DNA of 30,588 nt, taken from assembly GCA_964579095.1 (NCBI GenBank), contig CAZOGA010000003.1, positions 1 through 30,588 of the forward strand. The letters run 5' to 3'. Positions 11,010 through 19,115 of the stretch are shown here, one piece after another (within the stretch, counting starts at the first letter, position 1; every line of letters begins with the position of its first letter). The notes beneath the pieces were generated by a model that had not been told where the DNA came from, did not search any database, and worked only from the letters and a program-made list of their open reading frames with translations. The stretch is from an uncultured Desulfurellales bacterium. Lineage in GTDB: Bacteria > Campylobacterota_A > Desulfurellia > Desulfurellales > Hippeaceae. The translations under genes were made by a program, and so were the position numbers.

Positions 11010-11399
11010 ATGGCATCTGAACACGCAAAAGCAGTTGCTCAAGAAGTAATTGAAAAAGCGAGAAAAGGCGAGAAAATCAATAAGCAGGAGATTCAGATGA
11101 AACACGGCTATTCTAAAACTTCTGCTAAATCAATGAAAGCAACAATAACTAAAACTTATAAGAAAACGATGAAGCCAATTATTAAAAGTCTAATAACTGA
11201 AAGAGATAGGGCTATTGAAGAGATGAAAAAGAAAAGAAAAGACGCAAAGTATCGGGACTTATCTGATGCAGTTGATAAATTGACTAAAGTAATTCAATTA
11301 TTATCTGGCCGTGCAACAGATAGAACAGAGATATTTACTCAAGAACAAATTGATGCAATTCTCAATAGAAGAACAAAAAAAGATAGCACAAGCAGGTAG
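11010..11399 (+). CDS. terminase small subunit (putative)
   Basis: Basic helical protein with HGYSKTSA HTH-like motif directly upstream of and overlapping TerL. Confidence 0.65.
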   Translation: MASEHAKAVAQEVIEKARKGEKINKQEIQMKHGYSKTSAKSMKATITKTYKKTMKPIIKSLITERDRAIEEMKKKRKDAKYRDLSDAVDKLTKVIQLLSGRATDRTEIFTQEQIDAILNRRTKKDSTSR

Positions 11400-12777
11400 G
11401 TATGACCTTATTGATTTTTCTATTATTACTAATAGACAATATAAACCTAACTGGCACCATAATCAGATAGCAGAGAAACTAGAAGCAGTGGAAGCAGGCA
11501 AATTAAAGAGGTTAATGATATTTATGCCTCCGCGCGCTGGAAAATCTCAATTAGCGACTATTAACTTTCCTGCGTGGTATTTAGGAAGAAATCCAGATAA
11601 GGAAGTAATAACAGTCAGCTACTCTGGAGAGCTTGCATTAGACTTCGGGAGCAAGACAAGAGATTTAGTGAGGGATGAAGTTTATAATTTAATATTTAAT
11701 TTATCTTTAAGAGAAGACGAAAAAGCAAAAGGAAAATGGAGAACAAAACAAGGAGGATATTATATTAGTATGGGAATAGGCGGAACAATCACAGGCAGGG
11801 GAGCAGATATCCTATTGATTGATGACCCTATTAAAAACAGAGAGGAAGCGGAATCAGAAGTTTACCGCAACAAGGTTTGGGATTTCTACACATCCACAGC
11901 ATATACAAGACTTAATCCGGGCGGAGCAGTTATTATTATCTTGACTCGTTGGCATTTAGACGACTTAGCGGGAAGACTATTAAAGAAAGAGAGGCAAAAT
12001 TGGGAAGTGATAGAATTTCCAGCCATAGCGATAAAGGATGAGAAATACAGAAAGCAAGGTGAACCATTATGGCCGAGTAGATATTCTTTAGAAGAATATG
12101 AAAAAACAAAAGAAACAATAGGAATAATTAACTGGAATGCTTTATATCAACAAAGACCTATTTTATCAGAGAATCAAGAGTTTAAGCCCTACTGGTTCAA
12201 ATATAGGACACAAGAAGAACTTAATATATTAGAAACAAGGAACTTTATAACAATAGATACCGCAATCAGTAAGAAAGCCTCTGCGGACTATACAGGTATT
12301 TGCAGAAATTTTGTAGACAAAGAAAACAAGTGGAACATAAAGACTAATAAGTTAAGGATAAACCCTAAAGAACTAATAGACTTGCTATTTACTCTTTATG
12401 AGAAAGACAGACCAGAGAAGATAGGCATAGAAAAGACAATCTATTTACAGGCAATTAAGCCTTTCTTAGATGATGAAATGCGAAAGAGAAATAAGTTTTT
12501 ACCAATTGTGGAACTACTGCATAATCAAATCCAAAAAGAAACACGAATAAGAGGAATAATACCAAGATATGAAAGTGGTTCAATTATACATATAGAGAAT
12601 GAATGCGGAGATTTAGAAGAAGAAGCCTTGTCATTCCCTTTAGGCGCTCACGATGATGTTTTAGATAGCCTTGCTTATCAAGTTCAAATAGCAGAATCTC
12701 CAATTGGAAACGAAGCAATAAGGCGTAAAATTTTACAAAACCGCGCGCGGAGAACTAAAAACGAACTAATACCTTAA
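11353..12777 (+). CDS. terL: terminase large subunit
   Basis: Walker A MPPRAGKS, TGRGADILLIDDP, TRWHLDDLAGRL, nuclease IDTA...ADYT and HDDVLDSLAY. Confidence 0.95.
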   Translation: MQFSIEEQKKIAQAGRYDLIDFSIITNRQYKPNWHHNQIAEKLEAVEAGKLKRLMIFMPPRAGKSQLATINFPAWYLGRNPDKEVITVSYSGELALDFGSKTRDLVRDEVYNLIFNLSLREDEKAKGKWRTKQGGYYISMGIGGTITGRGADILLIDDPIKNREEAESEVYRNKVWDFYTSTAYTRLNPGGAVIIILTRWHLDDLAGRLLKKERQNWEVIEFPAIAIKDEKYRKQGEPLWPSRYSLEEYEKTKETIGIINWNALYQQRPILSENQEFKPYWFKYRTQEELNILETRNFITIDTAISKKASADYTGICRNFVDKENKWNIKTNKLRINPKELIDLLFTLYEKDRPEKIGIEKTIYLQAIKPFLDDEMRKRNKFLPIVELLHNQIQKETRIRGIIPRYESGSIIHIENECGDLEEEALSFPLGAHDDVLDSLAYQVQIAESPIGNEAIRRKILQNRARRTKNELIP

Positions 12778-15563: not shown

Positions 15564-15762
15564 ACAATTATTAGAGCAAGCGATAAGTGAGTTAGGGGAT
15601 ATCCGAAATATCAGAGAGAACTTGTTTCAAGATGAAAAGGCATTACAAGTAACAGCAAGATTACTAGCAATAGATATGTTAGAGAAAATTTTGAAGATTG
15701 CTAAAGGCGAAAAGGTCGTATCAACAAAAGATAAATTATTTTATTTACCAAAAAATGGCTAA
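15547..15762 (+). CDS. hypothetical protein
   Basis: 71-aa overlapping ORF. Confidence 0.65.
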   Translation: MENKIKQLLEQAISELGDIRNIRENLFQDEKALQVTARLLAIDMLEKILKIAKGEKVVSTKDKLFYLPKNG

Positions 15763-15946
15763 AAAAGAAGAAATTAAAAAAGAAGAAGTAAAGGCTATTG
15801 TAAAAGCTACTGACAAAAAAGAAGCAGAAAAGAATAAGAAGAAAGTAGTTCGTATTATAGATGTCAACGGGCAGAAATTGACACTTCCAAGTATGGAAGA
15901 AGCCCAAAACTATGTTAAAGCATACGGAGGAAAGATAGTATTATAA
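15755..15946 (+). CDS. hypothetical Lys/Glu-rich protein (start revised from 15698)
   Basis: MAKKEEIKKEEVK start. Confidence 0.65.
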   Translation: MAKKEEIKKEEVKAIVKATDKKEAEKNKKKVVRIIDVNGQKLTLPSMEEAQNYVKAYGGKIVL

Positions 15947-15951
15947 ATCTA

Positions 15952-15984
15952 TGAGGTAAACGGTAAACCTCGCTAAACACCGTT
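15952..15984 (+). promoter_or_regulatory. H-type RNA pseudoknot upstream of scaffold gene
   Basis: S1 GAGGU(15953-57)/ACCUC(15967-71); S2 AACGGU(15959-64)/ACCGUU(15979-84). Confidence 0.6.
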
Positions 15985-15992
15985 AAAAAATT

Positions 15993-16649
15993 ATGGAAGA
16001 TTCCAAAAAAGACGATAAAATTATCACTTCCGAACCTACCGAGGAAGAAAAACAAGCGGAGGCAAAAGCTTTGGAAGAAGTTAAGGATGACGAAATTCGT
16101 AGCGAAGTAATAGAAAAATACGAATTAGATGAGGAAATTGACGCTGACCTCATTAACAAAATCGTCAAAAACACCTTAGGAGAAAAGAAAGCGTTGAGCA
16201 CCGCTATTCGTCAGAAGATAAATCAGCGGACTGAAAACCAAGACCTTCGTAAGAAATACGAGGGGGACGAGAAGAACAAGATTGACGAGAACAAAAAGGT
16301 AGAAAAGATAAATCAGGATGATTTAAACACTATCCTTGATGAGCGCGACAGGAAGCGCGACCTTGATGCTCTTGATGTTTCAGACGAGCTGAAGCAAGAA
16401 ATTGAGTTCTACGCTAAGACTAAAAAGCTATCTGTCAAAAAAGCCCTTGAATCTAGCTATATCAGCTTTCTAAAAGCGAAAGAAGATAAAGCTAAGGAAG
16501 AGGAAGAGGCAGGCGCTGGAAGTGGAAGCGGAACCCATAATATCAAAAACCTTGACAAGATTGAAAGTCCTCGTAAAGCTTTTGACCTTTCTACAGAGGA
16601 AGGACGGAAACAATACGCGGAATGGAAAAAAGCCAAAAAGATGGCATAG
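15993..16649 (+). CDS. capsid scaffolding protein (putative)
   Basis: Acidic, helical 218 aa between portal cluster and MCP. Confidence 0.7.
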   Translation: MEDSKKDDKIITSEPTEEEKQAEAKALEEVKDDEIRSEVIEKYELDEEIDADLINKIVKNTLGEKKALSTAIRQKINQRTENQDLRKKYEGDEKNKIDENKKVEKINQDDLNTILDERDRKRDLDALDVSDELKQEIEFYAKTKKLSVKKALESSYISFLKAKEDKAKEEEEAGAGSGSGTHNIKNLDKIESPRKAFDLSTEEGRKQYAEWKKAKKMA

Positions 16650-16700
16650 AGTCGGTTGAGGGTTGGGGTGTTATGGAATTATAATCTAATTTTTAATTAA

Positions 16701-17915
16701 ATGAGTAATGCATTAACAGCCCTTAATAGAGAGTATTGGCTGTCCGAAGCGCAAATCATTTTCTTTAGGGAAAGTGCCGCGCTAAAGGTAGCCGCCTTAG
16801 AGTTGAGAGATACTCTGAAAAATGGTGATACCATAAATCACCCTGACATCTCTCATCCTCAAGCTGTAACATATACGAAAGGAAGCGCTATCACTAATAA
16901 GGATAGATTCAGCGCGAATCAGCAATTATCAGTAGCCACTGCAAAGGTAGTTCCTTTTTATGTTGACGAAATTGACAGGATTCAGAATGATTTTGTTACA
17001 CAACAGAGAATGGCGCAAGATGGACAAAGACAATTAAACAACACCCTTGACCAATTTGTAAACTATCTTGGCGTTAATAACGCAACAAGTTATGTTGACG
17101 CAGGGGATGTTGGCGGAAGTTCAGGAAGCAATATAGCGTTGACTGTTTCAAACATTGACCAAGTAGCAACTGCTTTTGACACCAAGCTTAATACGCTAGA
17201 TGTTCCTCAAGGCAACAGATTCATAATGTTTGGGCCGAGGTCTAAGGCAGTTTTGAATAGATATCTTGGCGGAAAAGAGACTTCAATGGGTGATATTATT
17301 GGACAGAATGGCAGAATGCCTAACAGATTCGGATTTGAACCGTTCTATTCCAATAACAATTACTACACAGCCACTTGGACACCAGCTGATAATCCTACAG
17401 CAGGCGACACTGTAACGATTAACGGCGCTGTGTATGAGTTTGTAGCCGTGCCTGACACAGACGAGGCTTCAACTGCTTATATTGGAGTAGATATTGGCGG
17501 AAGCACTGCTGTAACGCTTGATAACCTTGTCGCCGCTATAAACGATAGCGGAACAGAGGGGACTACTTACGGCACAACTGACGCTAATAACTGGAGAGCG
17601 CGCTGGAAGACAGTTAAAGCAGGCGTTGTTGCTACTGACGGGACTTCTTATATCTCAATAAAAGGTTATGGAGATATTGTTGTTTCTGCCTCTGAGTCAG
17701 CTGATGTTTGGTCTTCTCAGACTTCTTATGTTTTAGCTGGATTAAGAAAATCAGTTAGCTTAGTAACGCAGGTTTCTCCTGATATTTCTGTCAGACCAGT
17801 AGACAATAAACTAGGAAATAATATCTTTGTATGGACTCTTTACGGAGGGACTGTATTTAACGATATGAAGGACGCCTTAGTTTTCGCCAAAATCGACGCA
17901 AGTGATTGGAATTGA
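16701..17915 (+). CDS. major capsid protein (P22-coat-like, HK97 fold)
   Basis: GDTINHP, GFEPFYSNN and WTLYGGTV motifs; position after scaffold. Confidence 0.88.
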   Translation: MSNALTALNREYWLSEAQIIFFRESAALKVAALELRDTLKNGDTINHPDISHPQAVTYTKGSAITNKDRFSANQQLSVATAKVVPFYVDEIDRIQNDFVTQQRMAQDGQRQLNNTLDQFVNYLGVNNATSYVDAGDVGGSSGSNIALTVSNIDQVATAFDTKLNTLDVPQGNRFIMFGPRSKAVLNRYLGGKETSMGDIIGQNGRMPNRFGFEPFYSNNNYYTATWTPADNPTAGDTVTINGAVYEFVAVPDTDEASTAYIGVDIGGSTAVTLDNLVAAINDSGTEGTTYGTTDANNWRARWKTVKAGVVATDGTSYISIKGYGDIVVSASESADVWSSQTSYVLAGLRKSVSLVTQVSPDISVRPVDNKLGNNIFVWTLYGGTVFNDMKDALVFAKIDASDWN

Positions 17916-18652
17916 TAGATAACTAATACTCTTACGCCCCCGACACAATGACTGAAGAACATAAACAAAAAATAAAACAGAAATTAAAAGGGAGACATCT
18001 TTCTACAATAACTGAATTTAAGAAGGGACATAAATTCTCGCCTGAAATTTTGGAAAAGATAAAGCAAGCTCTTAAGGGAAACATTCCTTGGAATAAAGGA
18101 TTAACTGGAGTTATGCCTATTCCGTGGAATAAAGGAAAAAAAGAAATTCGTCCTGATGTTATTAAGAAAATGAGTGAAGCAAGAAGAAACAAAACCCTTT
18201 CTGAAGAAACGAAGAAAAAAATTAGTCAATCTAATAGAGGAAAAAAGAAAAAATACAAAATTAGCAAAGAACAATTAAGTAAAATTAGAAAAGAACAATA
18301 CCGAAAGCAAATTTTAAATGGAAAGCATCCGAGGTGGAAAGGAGGAATAACGCCATTAGTAGAACAAATAAGACATTGTTTCAAATATCGTCAATGGCGT
18401 TCAGATGTATTTACAAGAGATGATTTTACTTGCCAAAATTGTGGAATAAGAGGAAGCATATTAAACGCTCATCATATTAAAGAATTTAATAAGATAATTG
18501 AAGAAAATAATATCAAAACATTTCAAGAAGCGTTGGATTGTGATGAATTATGGAATATCAATAATGGCGAAACTCTTTGCAAAGAATGTCATAAGAAAAG
18601 ACACTTGGTCATTGTGTCGGGGGACATAAGAGTGATTGGAATTAATAGATAA
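17901..18652 (+). mobile_element. HNH cassette bounded by 22-bp direct repeats and long inverted repeats
   Basis: DR agtgattggaatt(g/a)atagataa at 17901-17922 and 18631-18652; IR 17937-17952/18608-18623 (16 bp perfect), extendable to 17923/18639. Confidence 0.8.
17948..18652 (+). CDS. HNH homing endonuclease with NUMOD3-like repeats
   Basis: SEETKKKISQS and IPWNKG repeats; FTCQNCG...AHHIK...NGETLCKECH. Confidence 0.88.
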   Translation: MTEEHKQKIKQKLKGRHLSTITEFKKGHKFSPEILEKIKQALKGNIPWNKGLTGVMPIPWNKGKKEIRPDVIKKMSEARRNKTLSEETKKKISQSNRGKKKKYKISKEQLSKIRKEQYRKQILNGKHPRWKGGITPLVEQIRHCFKYRQWRSDVFTRDDFTCQNCGIRGSILNAHHIKEFNKIIEENNIKTFQEALDCDELWNINNGETLCKECHKKRHLVIVSGDIRVIGINR

Positions 18653-18654
18653 TC

Positions 18655-18691
18655 AGTTTATTGCGCTCCTGATTTAGGGGCGCAATAAGCT
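18655..18691 (+). other. 16-bp RNA hairpin
   Basis: agtttattgcgctcct-gattt-aggggcgcaataagct, 2 G-U pairs; no U-tract. Confidence 0.7.
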
Positions 18692-18698
18692 CTATTCT

Positions 18699-19115
18699 AT
18701 GGAAGATGAAAACAAAATTACAACAATAGCAATTACTTTATTGGGAATTGTTGCAGTTGTTGCGTTGATTTTTACTGGCGGGAATGTTGTAACACAAGAC
18801 CAGCCTATCGGCGGATTAGTTCATAATGTTAAAGAGATATTTACGAATGGATTGACTGCGGAAGGGACTCTCACGGCTAAAGATGCAACATTTTCGAGCA
18901 CGGTAGCTGTAACAGGGGTTTCAACCTTATCAGATGAGCTGAAGGTAAACAGGACAGCGAGTTCTACTATTCAAGTAGGAAGCACTGCCTCAGGAGTAGG
19001 AACAGGATGTCTAATATTGGGAGATTCTGGCGCTTCTACTACACAGCCTGTATATATAACGGCAACAGGAGCGACTATTACAGCAACAACAACGAAACCA
19101 GCAATTTGCCAATAA
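18699..19115 (+). CDS. putative structural protein with N-terminal membrane anchor
   Basis: ITTIAITLLGIVAVVALIFTGG followed by Thr/Gly/Ser-rich beta sequence. Confidence 0.7.
   Translation: MEDENKITTIAITLLGIVAVVALIFTGGNVVTQDQPIGGLVHNVKEIFTNGLTAEGTLTAKDATFSSTVAVTGVSTLSDELKVNRTASSTIQVGSTASGVGTGCLILGDSGASTTQPVYITATGATITATTTKPAICQ

Follow-up and report, generated by a model that had tools for sequence, protein, structure and literature searches.

The window, a 30,588-nt stretch of DNA (contig CAZOGA010000003.1 of assembly GCA_964579095.1) assigned to an uncultured Desulfurellales bacterium, contains a compact RNA element in the gap immediately upstream of a putative phage scaffold gene. Comparative sequence analysis indicates that this element is a genuine H-type pseudoknot and a member of a conserved phage leader motif, for which we use the working description phage GAGG/CCUC-UAAAAACC leader pseudoknot; all five of the features by which membership was tested are present in the window. 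To judge from the loci collected, the motif is a widespread phage RNA that is found once per genome and most often just before head-assembly genes. We infer that its effect on the expression of these high-copy genes is exerted in cis and after transcription, and that it probably tunes the amount of head-assembly proteins made. Mechanism aside, we regard the fold and the family as very likely to be real.

The anatomy of the element is exactly that of the original prediction, namely a 5-bp helix S1 and a 6-bp helix S2 (P1 and P2 below) with loops L1, L2 and L3 of 1, 2 and 7 nt, lying in a 46-nt intergenic gap (15947-15992) between two + strand genes, with the AUG (ATG at 15993) 8 nt further on (Table 1). 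All 11 of the 11 pairs are Watson-Crick, and the stop codon of the upstream open reading frame (ORF) occupies 15944-46. Among shuffles of the 46-nt gap an all-Watson-Crick 5+6 H-type pseudoknot arises in only 0.035-0.11%. Bare 5+6 Watson-Crick patterns occur at 6 + strand loci of the window, against 5.9 +/- 2.7 in shuffled windows; with stem stacking of <= -20.3 kcal/mol the candidate is the sole locus on both strands, and shuffles give 0.17 per strand. A rough estimate puts the pseudoknot at -9.3 kcal/mol, compared with -5.6 and -4.9 for the S1 and S2 hairpins taken singly, and the nested fold of the leader is unremarkable (z = -1.37). A generic structure descriptor with a free P1 is too permissive in this AT-rich genome, giving 0.93 matches per shuffled strand. 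The evidence internal to the window is suggestive, not decisive, the bare patterns being no commoner window-wide than in shuffles; it is the comparative evidence that decides.

Distant relatives of the phage were taken from IMG/VR by capsid homology only, and among these the scaffold leaders of L100 and L097-99 (loci are given as L numbers), whose capsids are 41-43% identical, align with that of the window, reading GAGGU-GCGGCAA-ACCUC-UCUAAAAA-CCG-AAAAAUU-AUG in the former and GAGG-GCUUUGGCAAA-CCUC-ACUAAAAA-CCAAA-AAGAUU-AUG in the latter. A pattern search of IMG/VR fixed GAGG, AACCTC, TAAA and CC only, with the loop letters and those following CC left free; the resulting collections comprise the matches listed and are biased by the pattern, so that frequencies drawn from them are rough, and lineages were counted by eye. 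At many of these loci the unfixed loop letters, which end in GG, find their complement in the unfixed letters 3' of CC, in P2 versions as different as GCUGG/CCAGC, GAUGG/CCAUC, GCGGG/CCCGC, ACCGG/CCGGU and UUUGG/CCAAA, as well as ACGG/CCGU, GUGG/CCAC, UAGG/CCUA, UGGG/CCCA and UGGAGG/CCUUCA. Nine unrelated instances from IMG/VR, none of them akin to the window, served to build a covariance model, R1, in which P2 was encoded as pairs and P1 as sequence. Its only real match in the window is 15951-15989 (21.6 bits, E 0.0015), which runs the full length of the model (1-37) with P2 in register; the next match scores 8.7 bits. The model also recovers, at 35.8 and 30.3 bits respectively, the leaders before the scaffold genes of L100 and L097, whereas 558 kb of viral and metagenomic loci unrelated to these gave no match. 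The consensus of the family is GAGG-(0-3 nt)-nnnGG-NNAA-CCUC-NNUAAA(A/C)A-CCnnn. With L2 of the window read as (U)AA(A) and L3 as GCUAAAC(A), the conserved unpaired letters of the family are present there. Pattern searches with GGTAAAC..AAAC..TAAAC in IMG/VR and the JGI metagenomes returned chance matches only, and blastn of two motif subfamilies against cultured phages gave no match.

Both helices covary. In an alignment of 45 of the matched sequences 92.4% of the P2 cells are paired, and the P2 covariation score is 0.193 as against 0.051 +/- 0.011 in shuffles (0/500 reach 0.193), with slid P2 registers scoring far lower; three of the P2 pairs change on both sides, in 47 cells. Among the matches listed, a permutation test counts 21 unique instances with a P2 of at least 4 bp where 7.8 +/- 2.5 are expected, and when one instance is kept per family such a P2 is present in 12/31 as opposed to 3.2 expected. 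Since the search pattern had fixed P1, covariation of that helix was tested separately. A search with a changed P1 3' strand, AACCACNNTAAAAACC, yielded 106 unique matches among those listed, in 15 of which GTGG stands at the right upstream distance, compared with 1-7 for control tetramers (binomial 5e-7 to 4e-3); these 15 cases include GP20-type and Hsp20-type leaders that otherwise match the GAGG/CCUC versions. The Synechococcus phage S-CBP2 likewise has GUGG...CCAC-GUUAAAAAC-CGUGU between its head-assembly and capsid genes. A complete phage record of 82.6 kb, L299, carries four copies of the motif, each with its own matching P2 (Table 1) and all with the L3 GUUAAACA; the UAAACA form of L3 seen in the window also recurs in all four. 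In the third of these copies an A:U pair of the window's P2 is replaced, with compensation, by C:G. The compensatory changes in P1 (GUGG/CCAC, GAGC/GCUC) and in P2 thus support both helices, and the pseudoknot is confirmed in that an independent covariance model matches the site and both helices covary across the family. Conservation and covariation, whose absence the original prediction had named as telling against it, were therefore both found.

Every instance examined is intergenic and co-oriented with the neighboring genes. A single copy is the rule, being found in 19 of 20 phage records (five are complete to at least 90%); R1 detected no second copy in the window, and no convincing copy was found elsewhere in the assembly. 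Among the matches listed, the motif stands directly before a scaffold gene in about 9 of roughly 22 independent lineages, whereas the chance expectation for this position is 1-2%, given one scaffold gene among 50-100 genes. In about half of the lineages it precedes either a scaffold or a capsid gene, and at least three capsid families are involved. A gene for a scaffold-like acidic protein followed by the capsid gene lies downstream in the window, L002, L100, L097, L306, L278, L254 and L317, while L338 and L373 have a homing endonuclease gene after the scaffold-like gene in place of the capsid gene; the capsids of all these phages are of phrog_267 or phrog_9953. In a GP20-type group the downstream 'head scaffolding protein' is 50% identical to gp6 of the Brevibacillus phage Jimmer. 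The L279/L346 subfamily alone precedes GP20-type genes, and the Brevibacillus phages Jimmer1 and Abouo have a homologous scaffold without the motif. The other downstream genes encode Hsp20, endonuclease VII/HNH proteins, a small nuclease-like protein (no PHROG match), a structural protein, a lysin-like protein and small ORFs. The motif often starts 0-20 nt after the upstream stop codon. In L267/L270 it begins just after a TTGACA-17-TATAAT promoter and is therefore a 5' leader there.

An abundant subfamily places the motif between the scaffold and capsid genes of T7-like cyanopodoviruses (L233, L289, L341 and about 35 similar loci, together with 2317-2375 in L342, which is S-CBP2). In these viruses the motif comes after a terminator-like hairpin and U-tract 3' of the scaffold gene, and a perfect palindromic hairpin, CCAGUCAUGACUGG or GUGUACCGGUACAC, overlaps P2; further stems lie 3' of the palindrome, ahead of the capsid gene about 125 nt downstream.

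Nearer to the window, the leaders compared indicate that a structured leader before the scaffold gene is common, but that it turns over. The leader of L002 (capsid 89% identical) is the same but for a single substitution, A15979 to C, with the loss of the innermost P2 pair only; as the flanking coding DNA is 97-98% identical between the two, and so equally conserved, this agreement is uninformative. The first ten bases of the leader, AGGTAAACGG, are kept in L008 and L009 (capsid 72-75% identical) and in L011 and L012 (scaffold 50-53% identical), where they are joined to a different covarying hairpin of roughly 75 nt, whose loop UAAUCCCGG is complementary to the bases just 5' of the A-tract. 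This arrangement may be a second, larger pseudoknot leader. The long hairpin in these four loci (L008 931-1043, L009 117-219, L011 259-362, L012 226-347) comprises about 30 bp with compensatory changes. Its loop, (U/C)(A/G)AUCCCGG, forms 10 bp with the bases before the A-tract in L008, one loop pair is A-U, G-U and G-C in L009, L011 and L012 respectively, and a direct repeat on the 5' side of the hairpin is likewise complementary to the conserved loop. The leader of L013 is 29 nt long and unstructured, and more distant relatives have other long hairpins in the scaffold leader. A search for the capsid in 37 related genomes of the assembly's phylum found no relative, blastn of the window region against cultured phages gave no match, and a scan of genome contigs returned one partial locus, L089, with a different leader.

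Other short sequences recur in these leaders. The more distant relatives L003 (440-459), L006 (2275-2295) and L007 (2160-2175) share a different leader box, AGAACCCAG(AACC), and L003 and L006 have in common an SD-like (Shine-Dalgarno-like) GGGAAGAC directly 5' of the scaffold ATG. A further box, AAAGGTCG, is found 20-60 nt upstream of the scaffold start in the distant relatives L014, L093, L097, L102, L104, L105, L112, L114 and L338, 5' of the pseudoknot in some leaders and 3' of it in others; the window has a related GAGGTAAAC. This box may be a promoter or a protein site. A mini-ORF at 15951-59 (ATG-AGG-TAA) was considered and set aside, as it is not conserved beyond L002.

As to what the pseudoknot does, the reading to which we give most weight, with a rough probability of 0.45, is a constitutive role in initiation, i.e. 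that of a leader element which would set head-gene expression, as distinct from a scaffold-specific repressor site. The motif would act on the mRNA at the start of the scaffold-capsid unit, downstream of low-copy genes on the same strand (the portal gene and small ORFs). The A-rich L3 probably lies in the P1 groove of a compact knot. With its end 8 nt from the AUG, this knot would prevent upstream RNA from pairing with the A-rich site at which the ribosome lands, and would present a pre-formed helix where the SD helix would otherwise sit. Such insulation, along with the pre-formed helix, would raise and fix the translation of the scaffold relative to its upstream neighbors. In the SD-less leaders of the window, L002, L100, L097 and L334 there are 6-8 nt between the 3' strand of P2 and the AUG, while leaders with longer spacers have a normal SD downstream of the motif, at variable distance; none of the instances examined consistently sequesters the SD. 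Relatives without the motif have other stable structures at the same position of the leader, which also speaks for a leader role. We rejected a simpler idea, that GAGG is a distant SD brought near the AUG by an S2 hairpin, as in T4 gene 38: the genes of the window are SD-less with A-rich upstream regions, GAGG is itself paired in the knot, and relatives have GUGG or GAGC instead.

Several observations weigh against this initiation role. The distance from motif to start codon ranges from 0 to about 170 nt, and where the spacer is long the motif in several cases hugs the stop codon upstream. The copy in L268 comes after a tRNA array and ahead of a promoter. The cyanopodoviruses have the palindromic hairpin next, sharing sequence with the 3' strand of P2, an arrangement suggestive of a switch and not of a constitutive element. 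The window's own sequence type is known from just two members (the window and L002), the sole difference between which weakens P2 by one pair, and some close relatives lack the motif, with an unstructured leader in L013 and a different hairpin in L008 and L009.

The variable distance to the start and the hugging of the stop codon fit a role in stability, processing or linkage to termination at least as well as one in initiation. The motif might then be a segmental mRNA element, a barrier to exonucleases or to a 5'-end-dependent endonuclease, or a mark for processing, through which the scaffold-capsid mRNA would outlive the part upstream. Consistent with this, many lineages keep the motif close behind the upstream stop whatever the distance to the start. 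It also lies at the very 5' end of the transcript in L267/L270 and in a 3' position after the tRNAs in L268, adjoins terminator-like hairpins in L239/L261 and the cyanopodoviruses, and is present as a single copy at the boundary between low-copy and high-copy genes. Ten pairs would nevertheless make for a small barrier, the constant 6-8 nt to the AUG in SD-less leaders would be left unexplained, and we know of no link between a fold of this type and nuclease resistance in bacteria. We hold this explanation to be rather unlikely.

A riboswitch-like sensor is a somewhat more doubtful prospect. Here the motif would be an aptamer resembling preQ1-I that binds a small molecule or a trans factor and switches between folds, so timing or dosing the head genes. 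Its topology and dimensions are those of preQ1-I and its single-stranded nucleotides are highly conserved. In the cyanopodoviruses the 5' half of the palindromic hairpin and the 3' strand of P2 have bases in common, so that the pseudoknot and the hairpin are mutually exclusive; in the window a nested alternative, in which 15948-54 pairs with 15991-97, covers the AUG. On the other side, an A stands where preQ1-I has its ligand-pairing C, L1 lacks conservation, no PreQ1 match was obtained in the window at E <= 10, the downstream genes have no common metabolic theme, and most instances have neither a conserved expression platform nor a masked SD. A new class of sensing RNA, preQ1-I-like with the specificity C changed to A, which would serve as a once-per-genome head-gene switch reading a small molecule, the ribosome or a host factor, is a speculative proposal that we consider unlikely; under it, the overlapping hairpin of the cyanopodoviruses would be the expression platform.

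The original prediction had favored an autogenous operator, by which free scaffold protein would bind the knot, repress its own translation and set the scaffold:coat ratio as in P22. One part of this stands, in that a conserved RNA leader element is indeed tied to scaffold genes, in about 9 of roughly 22 lineages against the 1-2% expected. The knot also abuts the initiation region, and structured RNAs are already known upstream of GP20 scaffold genes, namely GP20-a, GP20-b and six more (PMC10690425). The other part, a scaffold-bound operator, is improbable as the general function because the motif spans capsid families and non-scaffold genes: it precedes the scaffold genes of phages that differ in capsid family, of which there are at least three (phrog_267, phrog_9953, GP20/Brevibacillus type), it is also found before genes for Hsp20, endonuclease VII/HNH and a lysin-like protein and before small ORFs, it is present in four copies in L299, and in cyanopodoviruses it lies 3' of the scaffold gene. 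Moreover, no RNA-binding domain was detected in the scaffold protein of the window.

We think it very improbable that the motif is a signal at the level of DNA, whether a promoter of a phage RNA polymerase or a protein-binding site, in which the complementarity would be incidental. The motif letters AACCUCACUAAA can be likened to AACCCTCACTAAA, which we take to be the core of a T3-type promoter, and the abundant subfamily lies 5' of the capsid gene of T7-like phages, a place occupied in T7 itself by a promoter. Recognition of duplex DNA leaves the covariation of two interleaved helices unexplained, however, and T7-type promoters are multi-copy whereas the motif is single-copy per genome. It is also present in siphovirus-like phages of Firmicutes, in which no polymerase of this kind would be expected, and lies directly downstream of a sigma-70 promoter in L267/L270. 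A scan of the + strand at the element for promoters and terminators found no promoter-like site or terminator. Finally, chance complementarity within an A-rich spacer, for which the shuffle-like frequency of 5+6 patterns and the modest nested z-score could be cited, is refuted for practical purposes by the searches with R1, an independent model that matches the site at E 0.0015, alongside homologous leaders in phages whose capsids have diverged to 41-43% identity.

The surroundings of the element are phage-like throughout, with a large terminase gene (11311-12777), a portal-like ORF of 590 aa, small ORFs, the putative scaffold gene, the capsid gene, an HNH gene and ORFs of tail-protein size, all on the + strand. 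The scaffold assignment is putative and derives from position and composition; the protein has no Pfam or PHROG match, and each of the 12 homologues found has a capsid gene downstream. The small ORF upstream of the pseudoknot gave no match in PHROG and Pfam searches, and its C-terminal motif is kept in the relatives L002, L009, L090, L100 and L104. Gene starts on the contig are A-rich upstream and have no SD, in contrast to the long ORFs on the other 206 contigs of the 1.41-Mb assembly, which show a G peak of 44% at -9. This difference may mean that the phage is foreign to the organism of the bin, its contig having been mis-binned, or that initiation on the contig is SD-independent. No 16S gene was found in the assembly on which to check the anti-SD.

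Between the capsid gene and the next structural gene lies an HNH/NUMOD3 endonuclease gene (17948-18652) that is absent from L002, and identity between the window and L002 falls to about 0 across exactly these positions, so that the segment looks like a homing-endonuclease insertion. Endonuclease genes are also found right after the scaffold genes in L338 and L373. At 18651-18690, in the gap before the gene at 18699, ATCAG/CTGAT is interleaved with TTGCGC/GCGCAA, which on paper makes a second pseudoknot or a hairpin; this pattern is perhaps no more than a GC-rich hairpin 3' of the HNH insert. A sigma-70-like TTGAGG-18-TATAAT at 16656-16685, 15 nt before the capsid ATG, is at chance level (3 found, 2.5 expected), and the weak second match of R1 in the window falls on the same positions.

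Table 1. Features of the pseudoknot locus in the window, and the helices of the four motif copies in L299.
Feature	Position	Strand	Details
Upstream small ORF, 63 aa from ATG 15755	15755..15946	+	C-terminus ...AYGGKIVL*; stop codon 6 nt 5' of the pseudoknot
P1 (= S1) 5' strand, GAGGU	15953..15957	+	Family consensus GAGG
L1, single A	15958	+	0-3 nt across the family, not conserved
P2 (= S2) 5' strand, AACGGU	15959..15964	+	GG core invariant in the family; in register with model R1
L2, AA	15965..15966	+	Family NNAA preceding the P1 3' strand
P1 3' strand, ACCUC	15967..15971	+	Pairs with 15953-57; aligned with model R1
L3, GCUAAAC	15972..15978	+	Conserved A-rich loop; family NNUAAA(A/C)A
P2 3' strand, ACCGUU	15979..15984	+	CC core and covarying extension
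A-rich SD-less spacer, 8 nt	15985..15992	+	Pseudoknot to AUG; AAAAAATT as DNA, AAAAAAUU as RNA
Putative scaffold gene, 218 aa	15993..16649	+	Highly charged product; from position directly upstream of the capsid gene and composition
Major capsid protein gene	16701..17915	+	phrog_267, E 8.5e-14; 202 homologues
L299 copy 1			P1 GAGCU/AGCUC; P2 CUCGG/CCGAG
L299 copy 2			P1 GUGG(U)/(A)CCAC; P2 GUCGG/CCGAC
L299 copy 3			P1 GAGGU/ACCUC; P2 ACCGG/CCGGU
L299 copy 4			P1 GAGGU/ACCUC; P2 GCCGG/CCGGU

In more general terms, little is understood, beyond a few model phages, of how one late transcript of a tailed phage can yield hundreds of scaffold and coat subunits and yet a mere dozen for the portal. A covarying single-copy fold at the boundary between low-copy and high-copy genes, in phages as different as T7-like cyanophages, siphovirus-like phages of Firmicutes and uncultured SD-less phages, offers a concrete, mutable handle on this question of head-protein dosage, and its length of about 32 nt makes it amenable to direct structural studies and reporter assays. 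In the Rfam search that had been proposed as a check, the motif has no match, and it is consequently missed by genome annotation and by hunts for riboswitches in viromes. At gathering score Rfam has no match in the whole window or in 23 motif-bearing loci, and at E <= 10 nothing relevant was returned for 15850-16100 of the window.

Of the known RNAs, the preQ1-I riboswitch (RF00522) is closest in architecture. Both are H-type pseudoknots of 30-35 nt in a 5' leader with P2 adjoining the ribosome-binding region, and both have a P1 of 4-5 bp that is often (A)GAGG/CCUC(U), a short L1, a short P2, a 4-nt L2 and an A-rich, UAUAAAAAA-like L3 of 7-8 nt after P1. In the established structures of preQ1-I, the C at the end of L2, 5' of the P1 3' strand, pairs with the preQ1 ligand. 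The corresponding position in the motif is an A (A15966 in the window, A in the AACCUC of the family consensus), the L1 of the motif is not conserved, and there is no association with queuosine or 7-deazaguanine genes. The sole match to RF00522, in L334, scores 12.6 bits on the opposite strand, the gathering score being 39 bits. We accordingly rejected identity with the preQ1-I riboswitch, and the resemblance is architectural only. The Pistol ribozyme (RF02679), frequent in phage DNA, has a 5-bp P1 hairpin, a loop that pseudoknots downstream and UUAAA-like letters right after P1. The motif, however, has neither the P2/P3 stems nor the cleavage-site linker of this ribozyme and no Rfam match to it, and the 46-nt gap of the window leaves no room for P2/P3.

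The leader of gene 32 in T4/T2, to which the original prediction had appealed, is likewise an H-type leader pseudoknot before a phage gene with a stoichiometric product under post-transcriptional control. Its knot, placed far upstream, is the nucleus from which cooperative binding spreads over an extended, unstructured A/U-rich tract. The analogy fails on anatomy, because the 8 nt between the motif knot and the AUG leave no room for a long unstructured tract of that kind; the downstream genes of the motif are also diverse, and there is no sequence similarity. The gene 32 pseudoknot, too, has no Rfam model (PMC10690425).

The motif is apparently undescribed, no description of it having been found in the literature in a comparison that left out the 10,006 unnamed csRNA models of PMC10690425, among them six candidates upstream of GP20 genes. 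With P22 it shares the notion of scaffold synthesis that is tuned post-transcriptionally to assembly, but its spread beyond scaffold genes argues against scaffold autoregulation as its general role, and to our knowledge no RNA operator has been defined for the P22 scaffolding protein. Its nearest counterparts by position are the structured RNAs upstream of GP20 scaffold genes, i.e. GP20-a (RF02991), GP20-b (RF03003) and six further candidates (Weinberg 2017; Fremin 2023, PMC10690425). GP20-a and GP20-b are larger, at 107 and 72 nt, neither has a gathering-score match in the window or in the 23 motif loci, and the scaffold protein of the window is not of the GP20 family by Pfam or PHROG. Nonetheless, like the motif, they are presumed cis-regulatory RNAs placed directly before scaffold genes, and one subfamily of the motif itself precedes genes of the GP20 type.

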